From the NCBI GenBank assembly GCA_964394435.1, contig CAYMXN010000001.1, positions 235,928 to 299,927 on the forward strand: a DNA stretch of 64,000 nt, written 5' to 3'. How positions within the stretch are numbered: position 1 is the first letter of the stretch; each line of letters opens with the position of its first letter. This DNA comes from an uncultured Candidatus Saccharibacteria bacterium (GTDB lineage Bacteria > Patescibacteriota > Minisyncoccia > UBA6257 > 1-14-0-10-44-23). Positions 7,516 to 58,958 of the stretch are shown one piece after another. The notes beneath the pieces are model-generated. The model was not told where the DNA came from. It made no database searches and was given only the letters and a program-made list of their open reading frames with translations. The position numbers and the translations under genes were made by a program.

Positions 7516-7605
7516 CGTACACCCCTTTTCTTAAGGACCTCAAGTATCGTATTCCTTCAACTTGTGCGTGTCAAAATGTCATATTTTATCACTATTTATG
7601 GGCTA

Positions 7606-7634
7606 TTGACATATATATGCTTATATGCTATAAT
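7606..7634 (+). promoter_or_regulatory. consensus sigma70 promoter TTGACA-N17-TATAAT with extended -10 (aTGcTATAAT)
   Basis: TTGACA at 7606-7611, 17-nt spacer, TATAAT at 7629-7634. About 110 nt upstream of the GC-rich ORF start. Confidence 0.6.
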
Positions 7635-7749
7635 GTACCTTAGAAAGCTGGTAAGTGGGACGTTCCCCTTGCTTGAGCTTTAGATCTTTGAGAAGAACAA
7701 GTCTGTGCGCTAAGAACGCACATTACGAAAGAAAGGCTCGGTTACTCGA

Positions 7750-8691
7750 ATGACCATGCACCACGTTCGCGCCACGATCTGCTTCGTGTCCCCCGACAAC
7801 CAGTGGGGGTTCGCGGAGGTCGTCGACTCGGAGACGGGCGACAAGAAGACGTGGATGTGCCACCGTCTCGGCCGTCGCGACGCGTTCGCGACGCAGCAGG
7901 GTACGATCACCTACTCCGACGCGAAGATCGCGTTCGGTCCCTTCCCGCAGCACGGCGACGTCGTCGTCGTGCTGGCGGAGAGGGCTCCCCAGGAGGGCAA
8001 GCAGTACCCCCAGGCCGTGTGGACCACGGCCGAGCAGTACGACCCCTTCATCGAGATCGCCGCGGGCAACCGCGCCGCCTTCGCCGAGTACGCTCGTGAG
8101 CAGGAGCGGCTCGCCGCCAAGCGGGCGGAGCTCGAGCAGAAGCTCGCCACCCGGCGGGTGGAGCTCGAGCCCCAGGTCGGGCCGCTGCAGAAGCGGTTCG
8201 CGATCCAGGACCTGTCCCCCATCTTCAACCCCCTGAAGATGACCCGGGTCGTCGTCAAGGAGCTCGGCCGCGAGCAGATGCTCGCGGAGACCGAGGACGG
8301 CGTCAAGGTCGTCCTGCCCCTGAACGTCCAGCACCTCGTGGTGATCAACCCGCGCGGCCCGTCGATCACGGCGGCGCCGGCGGCGACGCCCCGGATGCTG
8401 GCGATCGGCGAGGTCGCGTACGTGCGCAGCGCGTACGTGAGCATCCTCGAGGAGGACGAGGACCTCGTCCTCAAGATCCAGGCGAACGCCTGGATCAGCC
8501 AGCTCCAGGCGGAGCGGGTGGTGATGACGGGCCTCACGAAGGCCCAGAACACCCTCGCCATGAAGGCGGTGGAGGCCGCGGACACCGAGCGTCAGCGGCA
8601 GGAGGCGATCGCGCGGTCGCACATCAAGGGGCCGAAGCTGTCGCCCCCGCCCAAGGGCGGCATGGCGAAGGCGCTCGCTCGCGGGCGCTAG
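7750..8691 (+). CDS. GC-rich foreign-looking ORF, 313 aa; N-terminal OB-fold / cold-shock-like region then coiled-coil; function unknown
   Basis: Abrupt GC jump (to about 68% by eye) with strong GC3 codon bias. GAAAGAAAGG RBS. N-terminus (ICFVSPDNQWGFAEVVDSETGDKKTWMCH) resembles the cold-shock-domain core. Own terminator downstream. Confidence 0.6.
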   Translation: MTMHHVRATICFVSPDNQWGFAEVVDSETGDKKTWMCHRLGRRDAFATQQGTITYSDAKIAFGPFPQHGDVVVVLAERAPQEGKQYPQAVWTTAEQYDPFIEIAAGNRAAFAEYAREQERLAAKRAELEQKLATRRVELEPQVGPLQKRFAIQDLSPIFNPLKMTRVVVKELGREQMLAETEDGVKVVLPLNVQHLVVINPRGPSITAAPAATPRMLAIGEVAYVRSAYVSILEEDEDLVLKIQANAWISQLQAERVVMTGLTKAQNTLAMKAVEAADTERQRQEAIARSHIKGPKLSPPPKGGMAKALARGR

Positions 8692-8717
8692 CACGCACTA
8701 CCCCATCCTACGGGGTT

Positions 8718-8761
8718 GGCGCGGATGCAGATCGAAAGATCTTGTGTCCGCGCCTTTTTTA
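8718..8761 (+). terminator. rho-independent terminator of the GC-rich ORF
   Basis: GGCGCGGA...TCCGCGCC hairpin followed by a TTTTTTATTT run. Confidence 0.7.
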
Positions 8762-9598
8762 TTTAAACGCGCTTACAAATTTAAGCGGGTCGATTGAGAT
8801 GCCGTTTACCTTCAGCGAAAGGTGTAAGTGTGGTCCGGAAGCGTACCCGGTTTGCCCAACCGTTCCGATGATAGTTCCTTTTTTTACTTTCTGTCCTGGT
8901 CTTACACTCATCGAGTTCAAATGAAGATAGAGCGTCGCAATACCCTGTCCGTGATCGACGATAACCGAGTTGCCGTAAATCGAATCGAGATACGCTTTTT
9001 GTACTACCCCGTCGTTGATGACCGCCACTGGCGTACCAACTTTAGCAGTAAAGTCTACTCCGTAGTGATGAGTTACTTCGGTGCCAGTTTTGCGCGTCTC
9101 GCCATATGTACTGCCAATATTACGATTATCGTAAAGCGGCAGACCAAACCCACTCGTAAAATATATTTCCGGTGTTTTAGTTTCGAGATCTTTATTAATC
9201 TGGGTATTTGAGGTAGCTAAACTTTGCGTAAGCTGTTTTGGCGTAAGATTAAGCTTTTCTGGCACGGGAAGATTAATAACCGTAAATACTCCCGGGCGAA
9301 CGGTAAGTGTTTTTTCATACGTTGTCTGGTCTTCAAACGTAATGACTAGTTTGTGTGCTCCAGCCTTGGTCGCAAACGCGATTGGCACGAGCGCCCGATA
9401 CCCTCCTTGATACGCGAAGAGCGGAACTTCTTGGGCGTCATACATCACTTTGACTGGCTTTACCTCATTACTTATTTTGATTACGACAGTCTCTCCTTGG
9501 CGCGGGGTAAGTGTAGAAAAATTTGGCGCCGTAGCGTAAGCGTTTATTGCTAGGGCGAGTGCACATATCGAAATTATAAACGGGGATAATCGTCTCAT
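8759..9598 (-). CDS. M23 family (LytM-like) peptidase, secreted
   Basis: Signal peptide. HHYGVDF and GPHLHLSL metal-binding motifs. Confidence 0.8.
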   Translation of the reverse strand: MRRLSPFIISICALALAINAYATAPNFSTLTPRQGETVVIKISNEVKPVKVMYDAQEVPLFAYQGGYRALVPIAFATKAGAHKLVITFEDQTTYEKTLTVRPGVFTVINLPVPEKLNLTPKQLTQSLATSNTQINKDLETKTPEIYFTSGFGLPLYDNRNIGSTYGETRKTGTEVTHHYGVDFTAKVGTPVAVINDGVVQKAYLDSIYGNSVIVDHGQGIATLYLHLNSMSVRPGQKVKKGTIIGTVGQTGYASGPHLHLSLKVNGISIDPLKFVSAFK

Positions 9599-10394: not shown

Positions 10395-10421
10395 TGAGGT
10401 GATTGAAAACTGAACAATAGC

Positions 10422-10452
10422 GTCGGACAAACGCGCGAGGCGTTTGTCCGAC
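10422..10452. other. perfect 12-bp stem hairpin (GTCGGACAAACG-cgcgagg-CGTTTGTCCGAC) at the low-GC/high-GC boundary
   Basis: Seen in sequence. No U-tract. Lies between the small GC-rich ORF and the trmH start. Confidence 0.6.
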
Positions 10453-10459
10453 AAGGGAG

Positions 10460-10690
10460 CTAGGCGTCGAGGCTCTGCCGCGGAGTGCGCGGCGGCTGCT
10501 TGGACGGGCAAAACCCGTGGCACTCCTTGTCTTGGCGCGCGCCACAACACATCTTCTCGCCCTCGAGCGGGTCGATGGGGTACTGGGGTGATGAAGCCTG
10601 CGAACCCTCCACTGCGGGAACTTCAGGCAACAACCCCCTTGGACTAAGAACTGGATCCAGCTCGTCAACAAGCCTAAGCTCAATCGTCAT
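10460..10690 (-). CDS. small GC-rich ORF, 76 aa, Cys-containing (…CCGARQDKECHGFC…); function unknown
   Basis: GGGAGG RBS 5 nt upstream of the ATG (MTIELRLVDEL). About 65% GC in a 45% GC context. The longer 100-aa version would overlap the rsmE 3' end. Confidence 0.4.
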   Translation of the reverse strand: MTIELRLVDELDPVLSPRGLLPEVPAVEGSQASSPQYPIDPLEGEKMCCGARQDKECHGFCPSKQPPRTPRQSLDA

Positions 10691-10765
10691 TGCGACCTCC
10701 CTGATGTTTCGCGCGATGCGAAAACACCACCCTACTCTACCTAAGGGCTTTACAAAAGTCAAAGT

Positions 10766-11537: not shown

Positions 11538-12026
11538 CTAGCTTGCCAAACTCCAGTACCGCTCAAATGGTATCGGAGTGCCATCGTGACGAGAAAAAAT
11601 CGGAGATGATGATACCCGCAGGATGTCGTGGATGACCTTCATTGGCCAAGCGAGCAGTTCGGGCAGAAACGCGTCGCCAAGTCCATCGATGCTTCGGCCG
11701 TCCCAACCACCAGAGATGAGCGCCGACCGAATCACTCCAGAGAAATCAGTGAACTCATCTGGACGCCAGAGTATCTCTGGTCGGAGCTTGGCAACATTAA
11801 GCGTTGCGAAACCCGGAGCGTTTTCGACGAAACGGAATCCCGCCCGAATAAACGCATCTCGCTGCACTCCTTCGTCGGGCTCGATCATAATCGCACCATA
11901 AGAGTCGGTTTGATCCAGATGAACATTGAACCAAATCCACAGGTCAACGACTCGAGACCCCAAGCCACTCAATCGGTCGAGACACTTCGCGTGAATGTCA
12001 TTAAACACGAAGACACCCTTAATCAT
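11538..12026 (-). CDS. hypothetical protein (about 162 aa), moderately GC-elevated
   Basis: Start set at MIKGVFVF, which has an AAGGAGG RBS 6 nt upstream. No confident domain. Confidence 0.45.
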   Translation of the reverse strand: MIKGVFVFNDIHAKCLDRLSGLGSRVVDLWIWFNVHLDQTDSYGAIMIEPDEGVQRDAFIRAGFRFVENAPGFATLNVAKLRPEILWRPDEFTDFSGVIRSALISGGWDGRSIDGLGDAFLPELLAWPMKVIHDILRVSSSPIFSRHDGTPIPFERYWSLAS

Positions 12027-13797: not shown

Positions 13798-13956
13798 TGT
13801 GGACCTAGGCGGAATCGGACCGCCGCTTCGTCCTTGCAAAGGACGCACACTACCATTATGTTATAGGCCCAGTAAGTGATGTATTTAAAATAGCCGAAAC
13901 AGGCCAAAAAGAAAAGGAGGTGGCAGCCGGAGAACCCGAAAGCCACCTCGTACTAC

Positions 13957-14499
13957 TTAGGCCGAACTAACCAGGCGCGGACGACGCGAGCGCTCGTCGC
14001 AAAGGTGCGGACCGTACATCCGCATATACTCCTCGCGGGGCAGCGTCTGCACTAGATAGCCTAGGATGCGATGCATCAACTCGTCGTGCCGGGGGTTGTC
14101 TGAAAACCACTCCTCGCAAAGACGATCGATCTCTGTCTTATCCGGCGTCTCTTCGACAGGGATTCGCAGAAAAAGTCGGATGAGATCGGCGCCAGTCGAA
14201 GTATCGCCGAGACGGAGAACATCCCCAAATGGAACCTCGCTAAACCCAAGACTGACATACATCTTGGTCCAAATCTGGAGATATGCGATGACCGCCTTAA
14301 TCTCCGGACTGGGATGGTCGCAAAACGAGATAACCGAGCTGCGCGCCTGCCAGAGCGCCTCTCGATACATACGCTCTACTTCGGCAACTCGCCGCTCTTT
14401 CTGCCGCCTTCGCCACCACCGCAATAGCCTCATACAACTCCCTCCCATTTGCGCTGCTCGCCTATACAGCGCAAGCAAAGACAGTACCATTTTTATCAA
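13957..14499 (-). CDS. GC-elevated hypothetical protein (up to 180 aa; true start uncertain)
   Basis: Higher GC than flanks. Downstream hairpin (GGTGGC…GCCACC) plus T-rich tract on the minus strand. No domain recognised. Confidence 0.4.
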   Translation of the reverse strand: MIKMVLSLLALYRRAAQMGGSCMRLLRWWRRRQKERRVAEVERMYREALWQARSSVISFCDHPSPEIKAVIAYLQIWTKMYVSLGFSEVPFGDVLRLGDTSTGADLIRLFLRIPVEETPDKTEIDRLCEEWFSDNPRHDELMHRILGYLVQTLPREEYMRMYGPHLCDERSRRPRLVSSA

Positions 14500-14569: not shown

Positions 14570-15001
14570 CTAGGCTACCCACCGGAACGCTATGCCATGG
14601 AGATACTGCTGGTACTCCTGCTCAAAATCGGCACGGCCGTACGCCCCAAGTCCGACGAAATCTTCGATTCGATCATCCGCAGTCTTCTGGAAGATCTCGG
14701 CATCAATCAGGGCAAATACGATTTCACCAAGACAACGAGCATCTCTAATGCCAAGCTCACCCAAGACTGTGTGAGCGGCTAAGCCAAACTCCTGGAGTGC
14801 AAATGGCTTGAGGCTTGCTTCGAGCTCGACGCCAGAAACGTGCTTTTTCAAATTACCAGGGTTTAGTCGGTTGAGCGTATAGTCGAGCAACGCCGATACA
14901 AAGTGTAGCGCTTCGAGACCACACCCTATTCTCCGCGACGCCTCCATGAATCGGCGATATGAACGCTCAACGTCATCTTCTGCACCCTTAGTCGAGTCCA
15001 T
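14570..15001 (-). CDS. GC-elevated hypothetical protein, 143 aa
   Basis: GGAGGG RBS 7 nt upstream of the ATG. Hairpin (CCCCGTCAG…CTGACGGGG) plus T-run downstream. No domain recognised. Confidence 0.45.
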   Translation of the reverse strand: MDSTKGAEDDVERSYRRFMEASRRIGCGLEALHFVSALLDYTLNRLNPGNLKKHVSGVELEASLKPFALQEFGLAAHTVLGELGIRDARCLGEIVFALIDAEIFQKTADDRIEDFVGLGAYGRADFEQEYQQYLHGIAFRWVA

Positions 15002-19798: not shown

Positions 19799-19826
19799 TT
19801 GACAAATATAATAGGTATGCTATACT
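19799..19826 (+). promoter_or_regulatory. sigma70 promoter (TTGACA-N16-gTATGcTATACT)
   Basis: Near-consensus hexamers with an extended -10 TG. No plus-strand CDS downstream. Confidence 0.5.
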
Positions 19827-19833
19827 AATTTTA

Positions 19834-20060
19834 TCCACGGGTGGGGAAACCAGCCCCGCGGACGCGCAAGCGGCGTTACGAAAATAACGTTGCGGGCGGC
19901 CACCTGGAGAAGTTAAGAAATCACTCTTGGGCTAACGGCCCACCCCGCTGGCACGGCGCGCAAGTGTCGTGCCAGCGGGCTCTACTCTAATTTAGGGGCA
20001 TCTACATCTAATATTCGCCCCGCCTAAAGGCCAGACTCTTCTCAGAGCTCTGGCCGCTTT
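19834..20060 (+). ncRNA. candidate structured GC-rich ncRNA (about 225 nt), unclassified
   Basis: Promoter upstream, terminator (GGCCAGAG…CTCTGGCC plus T7) downstream. Internal perfect stem GCTGGCACG-N12-CGTGCCAGC and GGGTGGGG/CCCCACCC segments. GC far above surroundings. No ORF with RBS. Confidence 0.4.
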
Positions 20061-39117: not shown

Positions 39118-39139
39118 ACGAGTGGGTAATTGTTATTTT

Positions 39140-40711: not shown

Positions 40712-40719
40712 AAATTTAG

Positions 40720-42246: not shown

Positions 42247-42257
42247 CTCGGCTTTGC

Positions 42258-43172: not shown

Positions 43173-43194
43173 AAATTATGAGTATTAATGGTAA

Positions 43195-43440
43195 TTACCA
43201 ATCCTTCATCGCAACTTTCGCCTTGCGCTTAATTTTTTGATACAAACGTACTGCTTTTTCTTCGACCCGCGGAGAAACGACCCGTAAAATTTCTCGGCCA
43301 AGGATCCGATACTGACCGCCAACCTTATTAGCTTTAATTACGCCTTTCTTAAGAAGACGTTTGATCGTACTCGTACTCACTTTTAGAAGCTCCTTAGTTT
43401 CGTCGCTCGTGTATACGGTATTTGGGTCGATACTGCTCAT
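43195..43440 (-). CDS. excisionase-type helix-turn-helix DNA-binding protein
   Basis: YTSDETKELLKVSTSTIKRLLKKGVIKANKVGGQYRI matches the excisionase/MerR-like HTH pattern. Start placed at MSSIDPN. Confidence 0.55.
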   Translation of the reverse strand: MSSIDPNTVYTSDETKELLKVSTSTIKRLLKKGVIKANKVGGQYRILGREILRVVSPRVEEKAVRLYQKIKRKAKVAMKDW

Positions 43441-43570
43441 ATCGCCTATTTTAGACGAAGTGTCAAAAGGTGTCAAAAAGGTTCATGGGGATAATCGGTA
43501 ATAAAAAGAGCGGACGATGTATCTCTACATTGTCCGCTCATCGCCCGCCTGTTGGCGGACGGGTGCGAAA

Positions 43571-44263
43571 CTAGTGACCGAAGCGGTAACCGTAACCCTG
43601 TGCACGCGCCCGATGGGCCGCCAACATCACCTCTACAAACGTGTGGCTCATGTCGTACGACCACTCTCCCTCGATCGGGAGCGTATCGAGAGAGTACCAC
43701 TCGAGGCCACTCGCCTCGGCCTGGTTGTCTCCGCTCTTCACCCCGAACACGACCTGCTGGTCGTGCGTACCCGCGTACGTCACGATGTGGGTCGAGGCGT
43801 AGCTGTGCTTGCCCGGGTCGTGGGAGAATCCGTTGCGATTACGACCGTCCATCTGAGGCGCGTACTGGCGCATACAGACCGGATGGGCCCAACCGAGCGG
43901 CAGCTCGACGTCGATGCCGAGATCGCTCTTGTAGTGGAACTTCAAGGCGTCCTCGATGGACTGGTAAAGTCCGACCACGCCGCCGACGATGGCGAGCTTG
44001 CCAGGAAAGCGCCCCGTCCGACGACGGATGACACCGCCGAGCAACTGACCCGTCTTCGGGTCCTGCTTGACGATGACGCCGTCGACACAGGGCACGGCAC
44101 CGAGCTTCGTACGCAAGGGCCAGACCGCTCCCGAGACCCGCCCGTCCGGCTGGACGAGCTGATCGAGATCCGAACGCTGGGCGAGGATCTCGGCGAGTTG
44201 CCGAGTGCTGTAGCCCACCAGCCGATCCGCAAGGTCGGCAGTCGAATCAGTCCTTTCGGACAT
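43571..44263 (-). CDS. GC-rich foreign-looking ORF, 231 aa; Nudix-fold-like with degenerate Nudix box
   Basis: GC jump with GC3 bias. GGAGGT RBS. Region VIVKQDPKTGQLLGGVIRRRTGRFPGKLAIVGGVVGLYQSIEDALKFHYKSDLGI follows Nudix fold topology but lacks the REx2EE catalytic residues. C-terminal LEWYSLDTLP…YDMSHTFVEVML resembles the Nudix C-terminal helix. Confidence 0.5.
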   Translation of the reverse strand: MSERTDSTADLADRLVGYSTRQLAEILAQRSDLDQLVQPDGRVSGAVWPLRTKLGAVPCVDGVIVKQDPKTGQLLGGVIRRRTGRFPGKLAIVGGVVGLYQSIEDALKFHYKSDLGIDVELPLGWAHPVCMRQYAPQMDGRNRNGFSHDPGKHSYASTHIVTYAGTHDQQVVFGVKSGDNQAEASGLEWYSLDTLPIEGEWSYDMSHTFVEVMLAAHRARAQGYGYRFGH

Positions 44264-44314
44264 CGGAAACCTCCGGGAAATACCCTCCGCAACCGATTGT
44301 TGTGGATTAGATAT

Positions 44315-44343
44315 GTTATAGCATAAAATATGCCCAAAGTCAA
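44315..44343 (-). promoter_or_regulatory. sigma70 promoter TTGACT-N17-TGcTATAAC on the minus strand driving the GC-rich ORF
   Basis: -35 at 44338-44343 and -10 at 44315-44320, read as the reverse complement. Confidence 0.55.
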
Positions 44344-44396
44344 TCACCTGCTGTTGCGCCCACAAATCAAAAGCCCGCCAGCTGGCGGACTTTTGA

Positions 44397-46631
44397 TTAC
44401 TTCGTGCTTACTCCCAAGGCTTCAAAGACTGGCATAAATTGAGCGGCGTTCGGATTGCCTAGGAAGAAGTCTGGGACGTGAGCTAAGAACTGCCGTAGGT
44501 ATGTAGCTGCTTCAGCATTTTGGCCAGTAAAAGCCAGTACGACACCGAGCTTGAGCTCGGACTCGTAATCAGCTTCGTTGTACTTGAGTGCGAGACGATA
44601 TAACCTCGCCGCTTCTTCATAATTCTCTGCGTCACCATAATACCCGGCAACAATACGAGCCTCTGGTGCAGTGTTTGGGTTGCGCCCCCTGCTCTTTGCT
44701 AGTTCGATCTCTTCAAATCCTTTTTTCTGATCGCCAACTTCAAATGAAAGCAACCCATAGAAAAAGTGCGGGTCAGCAGCTACCGGATCAAGGTCGATAG
44801 CGTTTTGCATTTCTTTGAGCGCCGCTTTTTTATCTCCCTGGAGCAAGCGAAGCTTTGAGAGCATATAATACGTCTGCTGACGATTGGATGAGATACTTAT
44901 CGCCTTACGAATATTTTCCTCGATCAACTTGAAATACTTTTTATCGAGGTTTTGAAAAATCATTCCGGCATCGGCGCGTACAATGTACAGATAGTAGTTA
45001 TTCGGATCAGCCTGGATAGCCTTATCAAACTGCGCGAGTGCGTAGTCAACAACTGCTATCGTATTTGAAATTTCCTGCTGCTGCACCATCTGCGACAACG
45101 CACTTACCATGCTCTGACTGATCTCGTGCTGATATGGCTCGTTGAGTGCGATTCCTTTTTTATACGACTCGATCGCCTTATCTGGCATTCGATTTACGAA
45201 ATAGTTCAGCCCCCAGAACTGGAGGTGGTTTGCATATACAATTCTACTATTCACTACTACTCCGATGAGCAACCCGGCAACCACTACGCCTACTACGCAG
45301 CCGCCAAAGACCTTCTTTGTTGTAGTAAACGAACCTACCTCGCTGGTTGCACGATGCCGATCTGGAACATACTGGTCGACAAGCGCAATAAACACAATGA
45401 GCATCAAGTACGAGCCAAACGCATCAAAGACGAAAAAGTTTTGAGCGAGATAAGCGACTAGGGCGCCGAGTGCGAATGGGCGGAGCTCCAGAGGCGCGAA
45501 GCGAATAATCGTTCGGATAAGCAAGCCAATAAGTAGTACGTAGGCGAGAAAACCGACTACGCCACTTGTCGCTAAAATCTCAAGATATACGTTGTGCGGC
45601 TTATCCCAGTACGTTTCAGCAAAGCCAGTACGAAGCAAAACTGGGTTATAACGCTGATCAAATGGGTATTTAAAGTTTTCCCAACCATATCCCAGTAGTG
45701 GCTTTGTTTTAATAATATCGATTGCGGTTTTCCAGGCGATTAAACGGTTACCGACGGTCGCATCAAAACTTGAGATTTGAGCTAAGCGATTGAGCCCTGG
45801 GACCTTTTGCCATACAGCTGCGCTGCGGGTAGCAAAAAATACTCCACCAAAAATTATCATCGCGACAATACCGAGTAGCGGGATGTTTTTTACTATTGAT
45901 GTGCGCACTGTAAATGGCTTGAGCTTACGAAGAGCAACATACCCAAGCGTACTCATTGCGCCCAATGTCAAACCAACCAAAGCACCACGCGTCTGTCCGA
46001 GTAAGATAACAACGGCTAGGGTTGCGATGCCAAACCATAGCCAAACTCTTACCCCTTTTCGCTGGGTCGTACGAGCAAGCCAAGCTCCAATAAACATATT
46101 AAACATAAGATATGGAGCTAAAAATGCTGGGTTGCCCATAAAACTACCTGGGCGTTGAGCATCACTCCCCTCAAACACCGTTGGTGCGATTTTTTGGATG
46201 ATCGCAAAAAAGCCAACGATAAAGGCTAAGCCAAATAGATAGCTCATAAATGAGCGCCAGTTAATACGGCGACGCATCGCGACTAATACCAAGAAGTATG
46301 CGTAAAAGTGTAGGAGTGAGAAAATACCAATCGCGCGCTCTTGAATTGACCAAAAACTTCGATGCAAATTAACTCCCGTCAAACTAGCGAGCGCGAGCAT
46401 CCCCAAAAATAAACCTAGGGCGAGTACTAACTTACTTGCCCGAGGACGGTACTCTTTGCGAAATACTGCGAGCCCAATCCAAGCAGCTACTGTTAGCTCA
46501 ACTAAAATATGAAAGCCAAATACCTTTAAGGTTACGAGTGGATAAATGAGGTTATTAATATAGAGCAAAATGGCGAGCGGGCAGATATACAATCCCCAGC
46601 GCACGATTTTCGATAATACGTCTGTGTTCAT
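44397..46631 (-). CDS. O-antigen ligase-like (Wzy_C) membrane protein with C-terminal TPR repeats
   Basis: 744 aa. About 12 TM helices in the N-terminal half. The C-terminal half has repeated TPR-like helices (…YYMLSKLRLLQGDKKAALKEMQNAIDLDP…). Confidence 0.7.
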   Translation of the reverse strand: MNTDVLSKIVRWGLYICPLAILLYINNLIYPLVTLKVFGFHILVELTVAAWIGLAVFRKEYRPRASKLVLALGLFLGMLALASLTGVNLHRSFWSIQERAIGIFSLLHFYAYFLVLVAMRRRINWRSFMSYLFGLAFIVGFFAIIQKIAPTVFEGSDAQRPGSFMGNPAFLAPYLMFNMFIGAWLARTTQRKGVRVWLWFGIATLAVVILLGQTRGALVGLTLGAMSTLGYVALRKLKPFTVRTSIVKNIPLLGIVAMIIFGGVFFATRSAAVWQKVPGLNRLAQISSFDATVGNRLIAWKTAIDIIKTKPLLGYGWENFKYPFDQRYNPVLLRTGFAETYWDKPHNVYLEILATSGVVGFLAYVLLIGLLIRTIIRFAPLELRPFALGALVAYLAQNFFVFDAFGSYLMLIVFIALVDQYVPDRHRATSEVGSFTTTKKVFGGCVVGVVVAGLLIGVVVNSRIVYANHLQFWGLNYFVNRMPDKAIESYKKGIALNEPYQHEISQSMVSALSQMVQQQEISNTIAVVDYALAQFDKAIQADPNNYYLYIVRADAGMIFQNLDKKYFKLIEENIRKAISISSNRQQTYYMLSKLRLLQGDKKAALKEMQNAIDLDPVAADPHFFYGLLSFEVGDQKKGFEEIELAKSRGRNPNTAPEARIVAGYYGDAENYEEAARLYRLALKYNEADYESELKLGVVLAFTGQNAEAATYLRQFLAHVPDFFLGNPNAAQFMPVFEALGVSTK

Positions 46632-46764
46632 ATAGCTTTGATACTACCAAGTTTGCTCCCCTTTTTCCACCAAAGCAAACGCCCCCTTGCGGGGGCGTTT
46701 GCCGGTTTACTCCACTACACAAATTGCTTTATGTAGTTCGAGCTATCCCATGCTGACGTTACTA

Positions 46765-49700
46765 CTATTCGTAGCTGACGTTGGCGATGGTGAACGGAAC
46801 AACCGTTGACTCGATCGAGATGTTGCTCGTCGTGCCATCGTTGAACGTGATACCCGAGGCAGCGTTGATAAGCGCTGAGAGGGAGTCAGAGGTGTTGGAA
46901 CCGTTGTAGAAGCTTGAGGAGTTCACACGAACCTTAGCAGCCTTCGTGGTGCCTGGGTCAACTGTGTATGACGGGTTAAACGTCACAGAACAGGAGTTAC
47001 CAGCACCTGGAGTGCAAGTCTGTTGAGCTGCACTGCCGAGAGCTGAGTTGGTGTTGGCGTCAAGAAGGTCAACCGTGAAAGCGGTCGAACCGTTGCTGAC
47101 AGCCTGACCAGAGAACTTGACCGTTACAGTACCAACTACAGCCTGGTAGGCCGAGTCAGCCGTAAAGTTCAAGGTTGCAAGGTCGTCAACCGCTACACGA
47201 GTACGGCCAGTGGATGAACCAAGGACCGCGCTTGAGAGCGAGAGCTTCGTGCGGTAAACCGTGACAGTGTTACCTGAAGCAGAACCAGACTTCGTAGCAG
47301 ACGTGTTCGAGTCCTTACCATACGCCGTAACGAAGTACGTCGGCTGGGAGAGACCGAATGCGTGGGTGCTGTTTGAAGTGGCACCACCAGAGCTGTACGT
47401 CGCAACATCACCCTTTACCACGAGGTTAACCGTACCGTTTTTCGGAACGATAACTGGGTTGAGGCTGAAGGTCGCCGTAGCAACTGAACTGCCAGACATC
47501 GTCATCGAGATAGGACCAGCTACCTGAGTAGAGCCGTTCCAGAGCGTTACGTTCTGGAATGAAGCGATACCAGCTGAACCGTTACCTACCGTGTCGGTGA
47601 GCGAGATGTCGGTTACGCGGATGTCCTCAACGTTGTCCGCGGTAAGGCGGATCGTTAAGAGGGCGTTGCCGGTTGAACCCATTACTACGTACTTAGAAGG
47701 CGCCGTGTCGGAGCCAGTAGCGACCGTAAGGGTTGGACCAGACGAGATTACGATACTCTGACCGTTAACTGCACCTGGGAAGGTAATCGCCGAGTTCGAG
47801 ATCGAACCCAAAGCGCTCCAACCGATGATGTCGATAACTGCAGAGTGAGTCGCAGCCGTCGAGCTGGTCAAGATGTCGGCGTAAACGTCAATCGTTACTG
47901 AACCACCCTGTGGAACAGTGACTGGGGTCGCAGCGCTGAACGCGAGCGAGGTTTCCGCATCACTGATCGTTGGGCGGGTCGTTCCGAACTGAGTCGAACC
48001 GATCATAACCTTCATGTTCTGCATGTCGAAGTTCGCGTTGCTGTCCTTGTCAAAGGTAAGCGACGAAAGGGTCGCACCCTGGGCTGAAGAAGCAGTTACG
48101 ATGAACGAAGCGACACGAGCGTTGTTGCTACCAGCGATAAACGTTGGTGAGTTAAACGCTGAGTTTACAGCAACCGTGAGCGGAGTCGTCGTAACAGCGA
48201 GCGTCGCGCCGGTTACAGAACCGGATGAAGCTGACTGGAACGAGGTCTGACCCTCAAGGTTTGTGCTGTTACCTGGCAAGCTGCCCTGGAGCGTCGTGAC
48301 GTCAGCACCCGAGAGGATGTCAACGACGAGCGAGACTACACGGACAGTGTTGGCCGGAACAATGTAGTTAATTGGGGATCCGGACGTACCGAAGTGGCAA
48401 GTAATCGAGCCGGAAGCGAGCGTACACTGACCGGAGGAAGAACCACCAGCAACAGTGTTGATCGCGTTACCAACCTGACCACCTACGTCATCGATAAGGC
48501 GGATGTTTTGGATGTCGTCCGTCGGAGCAGTAGCCCAGTTAGTACCGGAACCAACCTGCGAGATGGTCGCATCTAAGAACTTAACTTTAACTGCCTCACC
48601 AGCTGCATAAATGCGAGCGCGGAGAAGAGTTACGCCAGAGGCACCTACTGGAATTGGAGCAGTTGGGGTGTCTGAAGCGAGAGATACCGTGATCGAACCG
48701 GTGTTGATCGTAATCGTTGTCTGGTTCGTTGAGGTGATGGAGACCGTGATACCAGTGTTGTACTGGGTGTCGATCGCCGTGACCTTAAACGGCTGGAGCA
48801 ATGAGAACGTCAAAGTGCGGTTAGGGCTGCCGTTGATGTCAGCGAAAAGCTGAATCGTCGAGTTACCCGTGTTGAGCACGATACCCTCTGGGAAGTTGAA
48901 GTTGGTGTTCGTCGCGCCAGCTGCGAGAGTCGCAACCTGCGTGCCGTTAACCAAAAGCCTCAAATTCTGAACATCGCCTGGGTTAGCTGAACCGACCATG
49001 CTGAACTGCATGTTGGTGAGCTTGACCTTGCTGTTAGAAACGTTCGCAGTCCAAGATGAAACGAGGACCGAGGCCGTACCAGCATCAACTGTTGAACCTA
49101 CCGCGTTAGCAGTAAGAGTCATCGTTGAAAGTGATGGGTTGGAAACTGAAGTGACAGTCAAGGAAGCGGTGGAAACTGGAAGACCAGTAACCGTCGCACC
49201 CGTCGCCGTTACACCCTTAAGCTGCCAAGCGAGCGTGTTGCCAGCTGAAGCAGATGAAGAGAGGTCAAGGCGGAGCTCACCAGTCCAAGTCTGACCAGCT
49301 GGGATCATCAAGTTGAGACCCGAGAAGGTTGCGACTGAGTTGGTGAGTGACTGGAACTGAGCAACAACTTCACCGGTCGCCGCGTTGGCGAGGTAAAGGT
49401 TGTTGATGTTGCTGTCAGATACGACACCAACCTTGTTGAATGTAAGGCCAGTAACCGTTACTGCAGCGCCAGCTGGAGCGGTGAAAGCGAAGCGGCCAGC
49501 GTTGATCTGACCAGCTCCGGCGATTGCCGAGCCAATTGGGTTGTTACCAGCGAGGGTAACGTTAAGAGTGGAACCGGCTGGGAGTGAAACGCCCGTGCCA
49601 GTACCAGTGCCAGTGTTCACAGAGCCAGTGAAGGCTGCGCGAGACTTTGCACCGAAGTAACCAGAAGCTGGGGTGATGCCAGCAGAAGTCTGCCAGGCCA

Positions 49701-50034
49701 TAACCGCCGCCTTGGTGATGCTACCGAAGTAGCCCGTTGGGGAAACACTGAAGTGACCCTTTGACGCAAGAACCTGCTGGAGGCAAGTAACATCAGCGCC
49801 CTTTGAGCCCACGGTGAGGTCGCGGGTGAAGGAACATGCTGAGTTGCCGCCAGTCGAGTTGTTGAGCTGGGACTGCAGGTTAGCCAACGTTGCGAGCAAC
49901 GCGTTGATCTGAGTCTGGATGTCTGAAGCTGATTGCGCACCGGCAACCGCTACAAATGAACCAAAACCAGAGAGCGTAGCCGCAGTGGTTACCGTCAGGA
50001 TTACTGAGGCAACCTTGTTGCTAAATTTACTCAT
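46765..50034 (-). CDS. giant secreted surface protein (1089 aa) with peptidoglycan-binding domain and long Thr/Ser/Gly-rich beta-repeat region (S-layer-like)
   Basis: Signal peptide. PG_binding_1-like segment (GSKGADVTCLQQVLASKGHFSVSPTGYFGSITKAAVMAWQ). About 900 aa of low-complexity T/S/G/A/V-rich repeats. About 500 nt untranslated leader upstream. Confidence 0.7.
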   Translation of the reverse strand: MSKFSNKVASVILTVTTAATLSGFGSFVAVAGAQSASDIQTQINALLATLANLQSQLNNSTGGNSACSFTRDLTVGSKGADVTCLQQVLASKGHFSVSPTGYFGSITKAAVMAWQTSAGITPASGYFGAKSRAAFTGSVNTGTGTGTGVSLPAGSTLNVTLAGNNPIGSAIAGAGQINAGRFAFTAPAGAAVTVTGLTFNKVGVVSDSNINNLYLANAATGEVVAQFQSLTNSVATFSGLNLMIPAGQTWTGELRLDLSSSASAGNTLAWQLKGVTATGATVTGLPVSTASLTVTSVSNPSLSTMTLTANAVGSTVDAGTASVLVSSWTANVSNSKVKLTNMQFSMVGSANPGDVQNLRLLVNGTQVATLAAGATNTNFNFPEGIVLNTGNSTIQLFADINGSPNRTLTFSLLQPFKVTAIDTQYNTGITVSITSTNQTTITINTGSITVSLASDTPTAPIPVGASGVTLLRARIYAAGEAVKVKFLDATISQVGSGTNWATAPTDDIQNIRLIDDVGGQVGNAINTVAGGSSSGQCTLASGSITCHFGTSGSPINYIVPANTVRVVSLVVDILSGADVTTLQGSLPGNSTNLEGQTSFQSASSGSVTGATLAVTTTPLTVAVNSAFNSPTFIAGSNNARVASFIVTASSAQGATLSSLTFDKDSNANFDMQNMKVMIGSTQFGTTRPTISDAETSLAFSAATPVTVPQGGSVTIDVYADILTSSTAATHSAVIDIIGWSALGSISNSAITFPGAVNGQSIVISSGPTLTVATGSDTAPSKYVVMGSTGNALLTIRLTADNVEDIRVTDISLTDTVGNGSAGIASFQNVTLWNGSTQVAGPISMTMSGSSVATATFSLNPVIVPKNGTVNLVVKGDVATYSSGGATSNSTHAFGLSQPTYFVTAYGKDSNTSATKSGSASGNTVTVYRTKLSLSSAVLGSSTGRTRVAVDDLATLNFTADSAYQAVVGTVTVKFSGQAVSNGSTAFTVDLLDANTNSALGSAAQQTCTPGAGNSCSVTFNPSYTVDPGTTKAAKVRVNSSSFYNGSNTSDSLSALINAASGITFNDGTTSNISIESTVVPFTIANVSYE

Positions 50035-53201: not shown

Positions 53202-54557
53202 CTAGTTTACAAGCAGTCCAGCGATAAAAGCGAGACGAATTTTGAGGTTACGGATATTTGCCCCTGCGGCCGAAAGATCTTTGCCGGCTGAAATACGCGC
53301 AGTAAGATCAGCGATTTTAGTCTTCATATCAGCGAGTAGTGCCTGAGCGGTCTCAACATTCTCGGTTAATACACCGCTCGCAGTAGCTAACTGGCCAACT
53401 AGGTCGTATTGCGTGCGGAGCTTGTCGAGCTCGGCCTCAAGGTCGAAATCGGAAAGCTGTACGCGTGCACTACTTGCGGCAGCGTAAGCGAGCTTGGCTT
53501 GCAAATAGGCGTTTTGAAAAGCCCCTTCGGATAAGAGCGCTTGCGCCTGCTCGTTGTTAAAGTTCGCACGAATAAGCATCGCTGAAAGCGCAGGAATTGA
53601 GTTCGCGCTCGTTGCGGTTGCGGTATAGATCTGAATAACACGTGCCGACGCCTTAATAGCCGCGTCAGCTGCGTCTTGGGTAAACAATCCCTTTTCTTCA
53701 GCAGACTTAATCACCTTTGAACGAACGACATTGAGCTGACTCTTAAGTTCAGAATCGACTAAGCGTTCGGCGATTTCCGCAAATGATGCGAGGCGGCCAA
53801 CCCCATCTCCAGAAAGCGAAGCGAGGTCATCCAATGTCGCACTTTTCCCAAGCGAGTGTTGAGCCTCTAAGACGCCGGCAAATTGTACGTATAAGTCATC
53901 AGCTCCGCGGCGCAACTCGATTAACGACTCGTCGTTTTTAACAATGCGCGACAGCACTTCGGCTAAGCGCAATGACTGATACTCGGTCTCACCACCAAGT
54001 GCGAGTTGCTCGGCTTTCTGACGCAACCCCTTTTCGGTTTCAAACGACTTGAGTGAAGCGGTGGCTAGGTCAACTAAGGCTTGATTAAGATTGGTCGCGG
54101 CCGTACGAATCGCCGGAGTCGCCGGATTAGTCAAAATATCATCGGCAAACTGGAGATGAACTAAGATACGCTCGGCGAATAAATCGACAAAGCCCGGCTC
54201 GATTTCCGAAGCTTTGGCGCGGTTAATGCGAGCCAGTAGTGTAGTTGCCGCTTTTTGGTACTGCGTTAAGCCACCGAGCATCAAACTCTCATTGTCAGGC
54301 GCGATACGCAATGATTTACCAACCTCGGCCGCTTTGTCATCAAGCGCACTTAACGCGGTCGTGAGCTTTGTACCCGAGAAAAAACGCTCAAATCCAACCT
54401 TAAATGCGTAAAATGGGTTGTTTGGTAAAATAGCCGGATCGCTACTGCTTAACTCGGCTAGTGAGACGGCGCCGATGATCGAAGACTGAATAGCAAAAGC
54501 CGGTACGGTCAAGGCGAGTGAGAACAAACTAATTGCGGCAACAATAAATCGTTTCAT
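53202..54557 (-). CDS. secreted Ala/Leu-rich hypothetical protein
   Basis: Signal peptide (MKRFIVAAISLFSLALTVPAFA). Helical/coiled-coil composition. Confidence 0.5.
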   Translation of the reverse strand: MKRFIVAAISLFSLALTVPAFAIQSSIIGAVSLAELSSSDPAILPNNPFYAFKVGFERFFSGTKLTTALSALDDKAAEVGKSLRIAPDNESLMLGGLTQYQKAATTLLARINRAKASEIEPGFVDLFAERILVHLQFADDILTNPATPAIRTAATNLNQALVDLATASLKSFETEKGLRQKAEQLALGGETEYQSLRLAEVLSRIVKNDESLIELRRGADDLYVQFAGVLEAQHSLGKSATLDDLASLSGDGVGRLASFAEIAERLVDSELKSQLNVVRSKVIKSAEEKGLFTQDAADAAIKASARVIQIYTATATSANSIPALSAMLIRANFNNEQAQALLSEGAFQNAYLQAKLAYAAASSARVQLSDFDLEAELDKLRTQYDLVGQLATASGVLTENVETAQALLADMKTKIADLTARISAGKDLSAAGANIRNLKIRLAFIAGLLVN

Positions 54558-55804: not shown

Positions 55805-56142
55805 ACCAGTATTAATTATAACCCAGATTTCCCTGACAAAAAAATAAGACTATCAATGTGCCAATCCCTATCACTTTTCTCGTATAATGACGCTTCAAAC
55901 GCCTTTATATTGACACAAATAGCCTACTGTTGAAGTATATGGTATTTTTGCGATTTGTCAATGTAGCCGCCTGCCTACCTAATAAGAGTAAATGACCACT
56001 AACTCAATGCTCCAGGCTATCTGAAATGCTGAGTTAGTTGCAGGAGAAGAGGTTTGAATTCTTCTCCTGCGATGCTTGAGGCGAACTCGTACGTTCGCCT
56101 CGACCTGTTGCGCGGGGTACGACCCGCTGTCTCGAGTCTCGC

Positions 56143-56976
56143 CTACGAGGCGAGACCCTTCTTCACCGCGGCGAGGACCACCTCGCCGTCGATTCCGCTG
56201 GCACCCCAGTAGGCGGGCTGTCCCGCCTTGCCGAGGCCTGCGCCACCCGACCAGCCACCCAAGTGCTCCTTCAAGCTGGCACAGAGCGCGCCGTCCCCGT
56301 AGAAGTTCACCTCCCCGTCCTTCGAGAGGATGAGGAGCTGGTCGACGGCCCCGTAGAGGCGGTCAGCGACCGCTGAGGTCTTCGAGTGGTCCATGCGGAC
56401 CACCGTCAGACGTCCGTCCACCTCCTTCGCGCCGATGGCGCGGAGGGCCTCTGTCTCGTGCGCGGGGGTCACCCCCTGCGCCGCACGGTCTAGCGCACGA
56501 ATGCGCTCGACCTCGGCGTCAGATGCCCCGAGCGCCCGCATCGCAGGGACGTACCCCGCGTCGTTGGCACCTACGAGCTCGATCCAGCGACGAGTCTGCT
56601 CGCTGGTCGGCATCTTAATCAGTGCCAAAACCTGCTGCACCGCCGGGGGACGGTGCGACTGGTCGCCGTGATGGTCGACGACCACCACCTCAGTCTGCTC
56701 CGGCCACTCCTTGGTCGGCGAGCACTCGACGAAGATGACGCATTCGATGCCGGCACACCGCGTCGACTTACGGTTGTGCTGCCAGAAGTCTGGTCCGGTC
56801 TGGACCAGGATCTCCTCGACCGTGAGGCCAAGGTCGCCTGCGGCGGCGTAGACATGCGACCCCCAGCCCTTGTTGGGCTGGACCCACTTCTCACCCGCGA
56901 GGGTGAGGAGAGAGCGAACGACCTCCATTTCGAGGTCGTTCCCGCCGAGTACGAACAAACGGTTGGCCTTACCCAT
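56143..56976 (-). CDS. GC-rich foreign-looking ORF, 277 aa; DHH-like phosphoesterase?
   Basis: GC jump with GC3 bias. Start at MGKANRLFVLGG with GGAG RBS. VVVDHHGD (DHH motif III-like) and LGGNDLEMEVVRSLL (motif I-like, substituted). C-terminal Gly-rich GGWSGGAGLGKAG where DHHA1 has GGGH. Weak assignment. Confidence 0.45.
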   Translation of the reverse strand: MGKANRLFVLGGNDLEMEVVRSLLTLAGEKWVQPNKGWGSHVYAAAGDLGLTVEEILVQTGPDFWQHNRKSTRCAGIECVIFVECSPTKEWPEQTEVVVVDHHGDQSHRPPAVQQVLALIKMPTSEQTRRWIELVGANDAGYVPAMRALGASDAEVERIRALDRAAQGVTPAHETEALRAIGAKEVDGRLTVVRMDHSKTSAVADRLYGAVDQLLILSKDGEVNFYGDGALCASLKEHLGGWSGGAGLGKAGQPAYWGASGIDGEVVLAAVKKGLAS

Positions 56977-57174
56977 CGAAATCTCCAGTTGGTCCGGAAG
57001 GACCGTGAATCCACTTCGGGCGTTTCCGCTCAGGTAGGACGACACCTCTGGATAAGCACTTTATTTTACAACCCGGCTTGGAAGGTTGTCCGCTCTGCGA
57101 GCAGCGTTTTAGGCGCAAATACGCTCAAAACACTGCTCACGAACGGTCTATTTCAATGAACGACTTAGATATTT

Positions 57175-57203
57175 AATATAGCATATTTTTATGCTTTTGT
57201 CAA
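57175..57203 (-). promoter_or_regulatory. sigma70 promoter TTGACA-N17-TGcTATATT on the minus strand driving the GC-rich ORF, followed by long structured leader
   Basis: -35 at 57198-57203 and -10 at 57175-57180. Leader contains inverted repeat GAGCAGCGTTTTAG…CTCAAAACACTGCTC. Confidence 0.5.
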
Positions 57204-57224
57204 TCTATCTCTTTTTGTTCCTTC

Positions 57225-58958
57225 CTACCCCTTTCTGCTCAATTGTTGATACTCCTGGATGAGTTTTTCGAGCAGTTGATGGTCCCCGGCACGTTCGGCG
57301 GCAGCCATCTGCCCCTGAATCTCCTGACGCCTCTGTTTTGCCCCCTCCTGGCGTAGTCCACGTACAATATCTTCAAACTCCTTCTTTACCTTTTTCGGGT
57401 CGTCGCTTACCACCAAACTCGCGTGCATCTGAAGCAGGCCAACTCGCGCGGCATCTTCTTGCGATAACTGCGCAACCTGCCCACCCTCGATATATGCATA
57501 TATCGCCTGATAGGTTTCCGGAATATACTCTCGCACTCCCTTTGATTCGATTAGTAATCCGGCTGTGTCATTTAAGAGCATCTCTAACAAACGCTCGACG
57601 AGAATGTCTTTACGCGTTGTTGGCTCGGGAATATCTACGTTGCCGTTTACCTCTTTAGGCGCACTACTACCTGCGAGATCGAGCTTGATCTGACTCATTT
57701 CAGCTATCAACGTCTGCTCGGCGATGCCGCTCATACGAGCAAGCTGGTGGAGCCAGTGGTTTTGTTCTACTGGACTACTCACCTGCTTAATTTTGCCAAG
57801 CGCCTGTCGTACCGCTTTTTTCTTACTTGCTATGTCAGTCGCCCGACCGATGCCGTAGAAGTTGAAGTAATACTCCATTGCGGGCACCGATCTTTCAATT
57901 AACTCTTTCATATGCCCCGGTCGAGACTTAGCGATATCGGCCGGATCTTTAAGATTCGGGTCGTCAAAGATAACTACTTTGACATTAAAGTCATTGGCTT
58001 GCGCCAGGTCGATTGTACGCTCGGCTGCCGCCTTGCCCGCGTTGTCGTTATCAAAAGAGAGCACGAGATTCTCCGCAAACCGGCGAATGGTCTTAAGGTG
58101 GTCGGCGGTAAGCGCGGTGCCGGAGGTGGCGACGAGATTTTTCACGCCATCCTGATAGGTGGCGATAAAATCCATCTGCCCCTCAACTAATACCGCGGTG
58201 TTGGCGTCGCGAATGTCATTTTTTGTTTTCCAAAAGCCAAATAGGAGGCGCGACTTGTTAAAAATAGGCGTTTCTGGACTGTTTACGTACTTTCCGATAT
58301 CCGCGCTCTCGTTGCCCGGCATAACACGCCCCGTAAAACCGATCACTTTCCCGAAGTGATTGTGGAGCGGAAACATAATTCGGTTGCGGAACCGGTCCAT
58401 ATACATTCCCCGCTCGGTTTTAAAGATTAACCCAGCTCGCTCAATATCGGCGGTCGCGTACCCGAGTTTTGTTACGTGGCGAAGTAGCGCGTCCATACCT
58501 GGACCCGCCATACCAATCTCAAACTCTTCAATCGTCTTCTCGGTTAGGCCGCGGCCGGTGAGATACGCTTTTGCTGGACGCCCCATATCCTCGGCGAGCG
58601 TCTGCTTGTAAAAATCTTTTGCGATTCGATTGAGCTCGTACAAGACGTCATACTTTTTCTGATCTTGGTTACCGTGCGTCTTAAGCTCAACCCCTGCTTT
58701 GTCAGCTAAAATTTTGAGTGCGTCTAAAAACTCGATGTTTTCATAACGCATCGTAAATCCGATTACATCTCCCCCGAGCCCACACCCAAAGCAGTGCCAG
58801 ATGCCACGGTCGGGCGAGACCATGAATGATGGGGATTTCTCTTTGTGAAATGGGCAAATTCCCTTCAGGTTTTTCCCTGCTGGTGCGAGCGCGACATACT
58901 GCTTAATAAATTCAGCGATGTCGATTTTTTCTTTGATGAGATCGGTGGTTTCGGCCAT
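57225..58958 (-). CDS. dnaG: DNA primase DnaG
   Basis: Zinc finger CPFHKEKSPSFMVSPDRGIWHCFGCGLGGD. TOPRIM region (EGQMD…). Confidence 0.9.
   Translation of the reverse strand: MAETTDLIKEKIDIAEFIKQYVALAPAGKNLKGICPFHKEKSPSFMVSPDRGIWHCFGCGLGGDVIGFTMRYENIEFLDALKILADKAGVELKTHGNQDQKKYDVLYELNRIAKDFYKQTLAEDMGRPAKAYLTGRGLTEKTIEEFEIGMAGPGMDALLRHVTKLGYATADIERAGLIFKTERGMYMDRFRNRIMFPLHNHFGKVIGFTGRVMPGNESADIGKYVNSPETPIFNKSRLLFGFWKTKNDIRDANTAVLVEGQMDFIATYQDGVKNLVATSGTALTADHLKTIRRFAENLVLSFDNDNAGKAAAERTIDLAQANDFNVKVVIFDDPNLKDPADIAKSRPGHMKELIERSVPAMEYYFNFYGIGRATDIASKKKAVRQALGKIKQVSSPVEQNHWLHQLARMSGIAEQTLIAEMSQIKLDLAGSSAPKEVNGNVDIPEPTTRKDILVERLLEMLLNDTAGLLIESKGVREYIPETYQAIYAYIEGGQVAQLSQEDAARVGLLQMHASLVVSDDPKKVKKEFEDIVRGLRQEGAKQRRQEIQGQMAAAERAGDHQLLEKLIQEYQQLSRKG

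Follow-up and report, generated by a model that had tools for sequence, protein, structure and literature searches.

The 64,000-nt stretch of contig CAYMXN010000001.1 considered here (positions 235,928–299,927 of the forward strand; hereafter, the window) has the backbone of a bacterial chromosome, with a guanine-plus-cytosine (GC) content of ~45–48%, into which four GC-rich genes, designated islands A, B, E, and F, are set. Each of these strong islands is a transcription unit of its own, comprising an AT-rich sigma-70 promoter, a leader, a GC-rich open reading frame (ORF), and a terminator. The backbone encodes a P-type ATPase, GroEL, a polysaccharide gene cluster, a short alanyl-tRNA synthetase (AlaRS), RpoD, and DnaG; three scattered tRNAs were found in the window and nothing else at the Rfam gathering threshold. 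Scanning of species-representative genomes with DnaG retrieved exclusively metagenome-assembled genomes (MAGs) of the Patescibacteria or candidate phyla radiation (CPR). L-numbers denote the contigs or loci of relatives that were compared with the window. The DnaG of L013 was 96% identical, and that of the remaining MAGs of the scan (Colwell-, Harrison-, Lipton-, and Paceibacteria-type) was at most ~50% identical. As the closest DnaG relatives are Patescibacteria MAGs, the host can be taken, by sequence relationship, to be an uncultured CPR bacterium.

The GC content and the GC content of third codon positions (GC3) were computed with each ORF in its correct frame. The backbone genes had a median GC of 0.475 [median absolute deviation (MAD) 0.026] and a median GC3 of 0.48 (MAD 0.04), and the ORFs of A, B, E, and F lay at least 5 MAD above the backbone median in both measures (Table 1). 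A preliminary description of the window had listed five or six compositionally alien islands. This stood for four ORFs, whereas C and D2 fell within the genomic variance and D1 was marginal; hence, four islands are recognized rather than five or six. The three codon positions of island A had GC contents of 0.68, 0.43, and 0.97, and the gene contained no NNA codon. The rise in GC was limited to the ORFs, with 0.24–0.51 in the promoter and leader segments and 0.52–0.58 in the 3′ segments, as against 0.42 in the other intergenic DNA of the window. A shift of another kind was seen in a 1089-aa protein with a PG_binding_1 domain (54% GC, GC2 0.54), where amino-acid content rather than the third positions accounted for it.

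Table 1. Coordinates of the island features and of the other features of the window mentioned in the text.
Feature	Position	Strand	Length	GC	GC3	Remarks
Island A promoter	7606..7634	+				TTGACA-17-TGcTATAAT; 12/12 consensus matches; upstream TG
Island A leader	7635..7749	+	~115 nt	~0.4		
Island A ORF	7750-8691	+	313 aa	0.695	0.97	Strong outlier
Island A intrinsic terminator	8718..8761	+				GGCGCGGA...TCCGCGCC, then T run; read by eye
Island B promoter-like site	10734..10762	-				TTGACT-17-TAGAGT; 9/12 matches
Island B ORF	10460-10690	-	76 aa	0.615	0.70	Strong outlier
Island B terminator	10421-10453					
Island E promoter	44315..44343	-				TTGACT-17-TGcTATAAC; upstream TG; read by eye
Island E ORF	43571-44263	-	230 aa	0.635	0.80	Strong outlier
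Island E intrinsic terminator	43501..43539	-				GAGCGGAC...GTCCGCTC, then TTTTTAT; read by eye
Island F promoter	57175..57203	-				TTGACA-17-TGcTATATT; 11/12 matches; upstream TG
Island F leader	56977..57174	-	~200 nt			Highly structured; candidate cis-regulatory RNA
Island F ORF	56143-56976	-	277 aa	0.664	0.84	Strong outlier
Island F 3′ structured region	55985..56142	-				4–5 hairpins; stop codon lies within the first (CTCGCCTCGTAGGCGAG)
D1 ORF	13957-14436	-	159 aa	0.565	0.64	Marginal
C ORF	11538-12026	-	162 aa	0.524	0.55	Ordinary
D2 ORF	14570-15001	-	143 aa	0.523	0.54	Ordinary
tRNA-Ala	13799-13870					~90 bp from D1
Candidate non-coding RNA	~19799-20060	+	~230 nt after the promoter			Strong TTGACA-17-TGcTATACT promoter; terminator near 20030-20055
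Small gene downstream of island E	43195-43476	-				11/12 promoter at 43448-43476
PG_binding_1 protein gene	46765-50034	-	1089 aa	0.54		GC2 0.54
Gene in the rpoD–alaS gap	53202-54557	-	451 aa			No Pfam match

The architecture attributed to the islands earlier (promoter, Shine–Dalgarno sequence, and terminator) holds, as judged from promoter matches and from reading of the sequence, in which Shine–Dalgarno sequences of the GGAGG type were visible along with hairpin/T-run terminators after A, B, and E and a series of hairpins after F. The loop of the island A terminator was too long for the simple hairpin scanner used. Promoter-like sites in total were not in excess of those in shuffled sequence, and placement alone was informative: the sites directly upstream of islands A and F had the best promoter scores of their regions. 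The promoter of island A was nearly invariant in L134 and L044 despite divergence of the ORF to ~50% identity, and part of a leader hairpin (GTGGGA..TTCCC) was also kept in relatives. The leader of island F folded with a minimum free energy of −78 kcal/mol (z = −6.3) and was conserved, with compensatory changes, in L052/L054, whose DnaG is 56% identical; it is thus a candidate for a new cis-regulatory RNA or riboswitch. The 3′ structured region of island F was kept in L008 behind an unrelated ORF, its last hairpin showing compensatory changes from CTAAC/GTTAG to CCAAC/GTTGG. Permissive Rfam scans of the F leader, the A leader, and a candidate non-coding RNA at 19.8 kb gave chance-level matches only. 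The last of these consists of a strong promoter followed by GC-rich, hairpin-rich sequence without an ORF, in which neither a tmRNA (by ARAGORN) nor an Rfam match was found. The small gene directly downstream of island E has a near-consensus promoter of its own, and its counterpart in L048 carries HTH_17, a Xis/AlpA-type DNA-binding domain frequent in integrative elements.

Scans of the island proteins against Pfam, PHROGs, and NCBIfam gave a sole match, that of D2 to TIGR04138 (78.1 bits against a cut-off of 60), which places D2 in the Minf_1886 family. PADLOC gave no match for A, B, C, D1, D2, or E, and matched F to C3a116 (7.6e-47) and DHH_CorA (4.6e-31). A profile built from the 28-sequence family of F matched the NrN chains in the PDB (9lq9, 9lqa, and 9lqc) with an E-value of 1.1e-50 over residues 3–251, and the D101-H102-H103 triad of F was invariant across the 28 homologues. 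NrN is a DHH phosphodiesterase of CorA-type type III CRISPR systems that hydrolyzes SAM-AMP, the type III CRISPR signal, and the equivalent residues D85/H86/H87 are essential in Bacteroides fragilis NrN (Chi et al., 2023; PMC10600005). Hence, F is predicted to be an NrN-family DHH phosphodiesterase, standing alone between dnaG and rpoD; neither corA nor cas10 was found among those window proteins that were scanned or in the gene annotation of the syntenic regions. Island E had 14 homologues, several with DUF4916 (PF16262) and one from Microgenomates. Its AlphaFold2 (AF2) model (pLDDT 82, pTM 0.77) showed the Nudix α/β/α fold, and Foldseek aligned it with probability 1.0 and E-values of 1.8e-8 to 7e-7 to 2fml, 4ktb, 2yyh, and 3gz8, and at ~1e-8 to Nudix proteins including the Nudix domain of NrtR. 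The Nudix box of E reads GGVVGLYQSIEDALKFHYKSDLGI; compared with GX5EX7REUXEEXGU, the Glu, Arg-Glu, and Glu-Glu positions are replaced and no REUxEE is present. Since the catalytic Glu and Arg residues are lacking, the modeled E protein is probably a degenerate Nudix fold acting as a ligand binder rather than a hydrolase. For A, a model of moderate confidence (pLDDT 70) suggested a pair of OB/S1-like barrels together with long helices and a C-terminal tail of basic character, and A is predicted to be a dual OB-fold orphan restricted to its lineage. The peptide B has a Cys-rich C-terminal half (MCCGARQDKECHGFCP), which was conserved in the L044 homologue (GC3 0.83), and no family match. The earlier guesses at these proteins (an OB-fold protein, a Cys peptide, a degenerate Nudix, and a DHH-like phosphoesterase) were essentially right, the OB fold of A being a prediction from the model.

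Judged from these assignments, the island products plausibly are individually nucleotide- or RNA-directed and act in nucleotide-signal turnover or sensing or in RNA handling. It had further been proposed that they are parts of one dispersed nucleotide-signaling or defense/counter-defense toolkit. The membership of F in a family that degrades the type III CRISPR signal SAM-AMP (PMC10600005), the resemblance of E to ligand-binding Nudix domains such as that of NrtR, and the predicted OB-fold-like structure of A would suit such a toolkit, as would the fast evolution of all of them, which is usual for arms-race genes. The island genes do not co-occur, however; A is confined to its lineage, the homologues of E and F occur in unrelated contexts elsewhere, PADLOC matches F alone, and the corA and cas10 partners are missing from the proteins and regions named above. 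A single dispersed system was therefore not upheld and appears improbable.

The islands were traced at the same loci in relatives. L044, whose backbone proteins are ~80–95% identical to those of the window, has homologues of A, B, C, D1, and D2 at the same loci, with identities of 46–48% for A, 67% for C, and 76% for D1. L134 carries A (57% identical) behind the almost invariant AT-rich promoter, and L048 carries E (80–83% identical) in synteny. In L052/L054 (RpoD 79% identical), F is 67% identical and lies in the same dnaG–rpoD gap. The GC3 was high in all lineages, with values of 0.97, 0.97, and 0.95 for A, 0.80 and 0.88 for E, and 0.84 and 0.87 for F. Homologues of A numbered two among 5.8 billion proteins; an exhaustive profile search of 1.84 billion representatives added four marginal matches, of which the three that were read (P0134, P0136, and P0137) had a layout similar to that of A. 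All the named homologues of F and E were from CPR bacteria (Staskawicz-, Parcu-, Kaiser-, and Daviesbacteria, and Microgenomates). In other CPR genomes, the homologues of E had native composition (GC3 0.43–0.46), which indicates that high GC is not intrinsic to the E family. Scans of IMG/VR proteins for A, E, and F found none, and phage searches by megablast/blastn with a 20-kb backbone stretch (28000–48000, including E) and with island A were likewise without matches; F gave none against phages by tblastn and only distant NrN–CorA fusions in Arcobacter against plasmids. In some of these neighborhoods, fragments of HNH-repeat and GIY-YIG genes lie near island homologues (L052:1555-2487; the end of locus L053; L135:6937-7026) and hint at homing-type mobile genes there.

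Over the GC-rich homologues of A and E, gene callers had chosen wrong-frame or antisense ORFs (L044:13790-14914 and L048:2378-3148), and for each of the A and E proteins of the window, the only record is from a single Logan contig. Systematic mis-annotation may affect GC3-saturated genes of low-GC MAGs.

An assembly or binning chimera, or deliberate engineering, had been raised as a source of the islands. The GC steps are indeed very sharp and coincide with start and stop codons, the promoters come close to consensus, and several Logan contigs terminate near island edges. Against this, the exact island proteins are present in public assemblies, and contigs from other sequencing runs reach across the junctions of A (window 7707–9006), E (43468–44382), and F (several contigs). 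Those over A and E were 100% identical to the window, and those of the F region were identical save for one dnaG mismatch in two contigs. Orthologous GC-rich islands also occur in diverged natural relatives from unrelated samples, and the islands use a mixture of codons like that of natural genes rather than the one-codon-per-residue pattern typical of synthetic optimization. Since independent read sets and diverged relatives both reproduce the junctions, a chimeric or engineered origin is excluded, with only a vanishing likelihood left to it.

Divergence was estimated by the Nei–Gojobori method for the same genome pairs. In the backbone, the proportion of synonymous differences (pS) was 0.57–0.85, i.e., saturated, and the proportion of nonsynonymous differences (pN) was 0.03–0.30 (0.03–0.10 against L044, L048, and L008). 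In the islands, pS and pN were 0.34 and 0.36 for A (dN/dS ~1.1), 0.40 and 0.14 for E, and 0.41 and 0.25 for F; the synonymous sites of D1 were saturated like those of the backbone in the L044 comparison. Among codons for the same residue, the differences in A were mostly C↔G (21 of 31), whereas those in the backbone were mostly transitions. With S denoting G or C and W denoting A or T, the third positions of A in three taxa showed 133 S↔S, 20 S→W, and 1 W→S changes, as against 19, 118, and 98, respectively, for DnaG. The ratio of S→W to S↔S changes at G/C sites was thus ~6:1 in the backbone (DnaG) and 0.15:1 in A. This deficit of S→W changes indicates that the alleles of A have not diverged neutrally under the mutation spectrum of this genome. 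The A gene is, moreover, a mosaic, as its last 30 codons are 94% nucleotide-identical between the window and L044 and different in L134, which points to recombination between alleles.

Recent acquisition at several sites had also been put forward in the preliminary description, and these data bear on the view that the islands are recent, independent, and not yet ameliorated acquisitions from high-GC donors such as Actinobacteria or their phages. The codon-position profile of A resembles that of genes from genomes of ~70% GC, the dnaG–rpoD slot varies between relatives, the synonymous divergence of the islands is below that of the backbone, as expected from a more recent coalescence, and an S↔S-dominated spectrum is that of divergence inside a high-GC genome. 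Nevertheless, the expected best hits in high-GC taxa did not appear: no high-GC homologue was visible, the named homologues of F and E being from CPR and A being an orphan, and the viral, phage, and plasmid searches were negative or yielded the distant NrN–CorA fusions only. The same locus and conserved AT-rich promoter recur in three lineages for A and in deep relatives for F, and the islands are syntenic where backbone synonymous sites are already saturated. Recent import would demand an ORF-precise, site-specific re-insertion each time, and the GC step lies at the ORF edges and not at the edges of the insert, which includes the AT-rich promoter. Recent acquisition at several sites is therefore considered unlikely. 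Repeated import from a hidden high-GC reservoir is conceivable, although capture from it would have to be both ORF-precise and locus-specific, and no donor was seen.

The dynamics of such a slot could be followed between dnaG and rpoD. In L013, the gap between the two genes is empty (~185 bp) and the whole unit of 55985–57203 is absent, which shows that, besides the ORF and its leader, the inserted unit includes the AT-rich promoter and the 3′ hairpins. In L008, the slot shares with the window the promoter type, the first two leader hairpins, and the 3′ hairpins, and the ORF between them is an unrelated one of 254 aa (GC3 0.84). Both this ORF and that of F end in ...LAS* inside the conserved stop-codon hairpin. 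A further island of 224 aa (GC3 0.77) lies next to tRNA-Ser in L044/L045; the window has 33 bp at this place, and no target duplication is visible. PADLOC and PDB sequence searches with the alternative cassettes of L008 and L044 were without match. Both the window and L013 have a 451-aa gene without a Pfam match in the gap between rpoD and alaS; in L008 (12361–13696), a shorter region with an ORF of 110 aa takes its place. This further variable slot has no GC anomaly.

The replacement in L008 would also suit a site-specific cassette system, either integron-like or based on hairpin-directed single-strand recombination. The replaced segment starts right after leader hairpin 2 and ends in the stop-codon hairpin; the shared ...LAS* ending and the covariation of the CTAAC...GTTAG arms of the distal 3′ hairpin to CCAAC...GTTGG in L008 fit as well, and cassettes are single ORFs that are often orphans. 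The CTAAC...GTTAG arms presumably resemble the R″/R′ cores of attC sites. On the other side, no integrase, transposase, or recombinase family was found among the called genes of the window and the syntenic loci, which confirms the preliminary description as regards integrases and transposases; every unit comes with a promoter and a terminator of its own; no sequence or repeat is common to the flanks of A, B, E, and F; and the hairpins are equally explained as leader and terminator RNA structures. The related claim that no tRNA-adjacent att site exists stood only in part, since D1 adjoins tRNA-Ala and the extra island of L044 adjoins tRNA-Ser; no att-like repeats were seen, though no systematic search for them was made. 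In viral contigs, the 3′ hairpin motif of the dnaG–rpoD frame was not found, and an 18-mer of the leader gave four matches, about chance by a rough estimate. A cassette system of this kind is accordingly regarded as improbable.

The evidence taken together tilts slightly towards A, B, E, and F being long-standing, syntenic, hypervariable accessory-gene slots of a CPR lineage, which are prone to recombination and in which GC3 is actively held high. Each slot would be a stand-alone unit in which a conserved AT-rich sigma-70 promoter, a leader (structured in F), and a terminator frame one ORF. The ORFs would evolve very fast, and homologous recombination in the conserved flanks, which would probably follow natural transformation, would shuffle or replace them between related lineages. 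The outcome would be mosaic alleles, presence or absence of a gene, and the unrelated-ORF replacement at dnaG–rpoD. A motif resembling an uptake signal, sought with a k-mer test, was not enriched relative to synonymous-codon shuffles. Because A/T-creating changes are almost never fixed at island third positions, we infer that G/C is actively held in place there and is not the fading scar of an import.

Two forces could hold GC3 high, namely, GC-biased repair of heteroduplexes at recombination-hot loci and selection on the mRNA or codon set. The former fits the S↔S spectrum, the raised dN/dS, the mosaicism, and the intermediate GC of the non-promoter flanks, and fits the ORF-limited step less well; the latter fits the ORF limit and the zero NNA codons of A. 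Translational selection for G/C-ending codons is unlikely, since the GC3 of GroEL, RpoD, and DnaG is only 0.51–0.57, with 0.51–0.55 for GroEL and RpoD. Free-standing homing endonucleases were also rejected, as no such nuclease domain is present, and overlapping antisense genes were discounted, long antisense ORFs being a usual by-product of high GC3. Several points weigh against hypervariable slots with actively maintained GC3. Neither of the two candidate forces is singled out, and an unsampled high-GC reservoir combined with recent import would yield the same S↔S-dominated spectrum. GC-biased conversion is not expected to stop at ORF edges unless promoter or terminator function resists it. 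The replacement junctions of F coincide with hairpins, so that a site-specific mechanism could have acted instead of plain homologous recombination. The three-taxon changes were polarized by majority rule without an outgroup, the composition survey covers 64 kb of the genome, and one to three relatives were available per locus.

A broader proposal, offered tentatively and with the probability leaning against it, is that CPR bacteria have a locus-restricted process that drives chosen stand-alone accessory genes to near-total third-position G/C and holds them there. One form left open is unusually strong GC-biased conversion at recombination-hot, diversifying loci. Alternatively, the process might be selection for mRNAs free of A/U-ending codons, which would be decoded or would survive where ordinary transcripts fail, e.g., under depletion of U34 tRNAs or attack by AU-specific RNases. 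If such a process exists, any ORF in such a slot would become GC-rich over time, and the single-gene GC peaks of NrN type in many unrelated low-GC genomes would be explained. At 50 metagenomic loci of NrN homologues with usable flanks, obtained by a profile-based contig scan, the gene exceeded its flanks by 0.09 GC on average and by more than 0.10 in 19 cases, and in genomes of 28–45% GC, the homologues formed sharp single-gene GC peaks. The dnaG–rpoD context was shared by 1 of 80 NrN homologue loci, and one homologue (L089) adjoins Cmr-like genes, its neighbors having been named by reading of the proteins without a family search. On a Staskawiczbacteria-like contig (L049/L055), at least 10 genes without a Pfam match and with 52–62% GC, separated by spacers of 40–48% GC, surround the NrN homologue over ~3.2–10.8 kb; this run may be an array of similar stand-alone units.

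Detection of horizontal transfer by composition assumes that GC-deviant genes are recent imports decaying toward the host, whereas the deviant genes described here appear to be old residents that are not decaying. In CPR genomes, composition-based calls could therefore systematically mislabel native hypervariable genes, and gene callers trained on host composition mis-frame GC-rich island genes. Should biased conversion be the maintaining force, few local cases in bacteria would be as strong as the islands; should it be codon or mRNA selection, they would point to a regulatory layer not yet recognized in ultra-small symbionts. An object for experiment is provided by the stand-alone NrN-type phosphodiesterase between dnaG and rpoD, behind its conserved 200-nt leader that matches no known RNA family.

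The islands and their products can be compared with several known systems. The F protein matches NrN of CorA-type type III CRISPR systems (PMC10600005; 9lq9, 9lqa, and 9lqc) at the family level (E 1e-50) and with an intact DHH motif. Its setting differs, as F is a solitary gene in the dnaG–rpoD gap, preceded by a structured leader of 200 nt, with no corA or cas10 among the nearby proteins scanned. The E protein shares the Nudix fold, and homologues with PF16262, with degenerate Nudix proteins (NrtR-type; Pfam DUF4916), and is set apart by the lack of the catalytic REUxEE residues and by an N-terminal helical extension. Similar to integron cassettes, the islands are single-ORF units, often orphans, and hairpins mark the replacement junctions at dnaG–rpoD. 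Unlike integron cassettes, they bring along promoters and terminators and lie scattered rather than in an array, and no integrase was found in the window or the syntenic loci. No repeat was seen to be shared between the island flanks; a single CTAAC...GTTAG hairpin was seen, at F only.

The deviating composition of A, B, E, and F is that of classical horizontally acquired islands, whereas homologues from a donor taxon are absent among the named hits, and A, B, and E are syntenic in relatives, with F absent from L013 only. Hotspots of GC-biased gene conversion have been described mainly in eukaryotes and are debated in bacteria. The islands share with them a GC3 near 1, the dominance of S↔S changes, the deficit of S→W changes, raised dN/dS, and mosaic alleles, and differ in that the effect is seemingly confined to the ORF and occurs in a bacterium of ~47% GC. 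As with flexible genomic islands and islets of the replacement type (O-antigen and capsule loci) and with phage morons, the same slot holds different genes or none in close relatives, and each unit has its own promoter and terminator and no mobility genes. In contrast to these, the islands are single genes of which the ORF alone is GC3-saturated (0.70–0.97), and their composition persists across lineages in which the synonymous sites of the backbone are saturated, with S↔S changes dominating.

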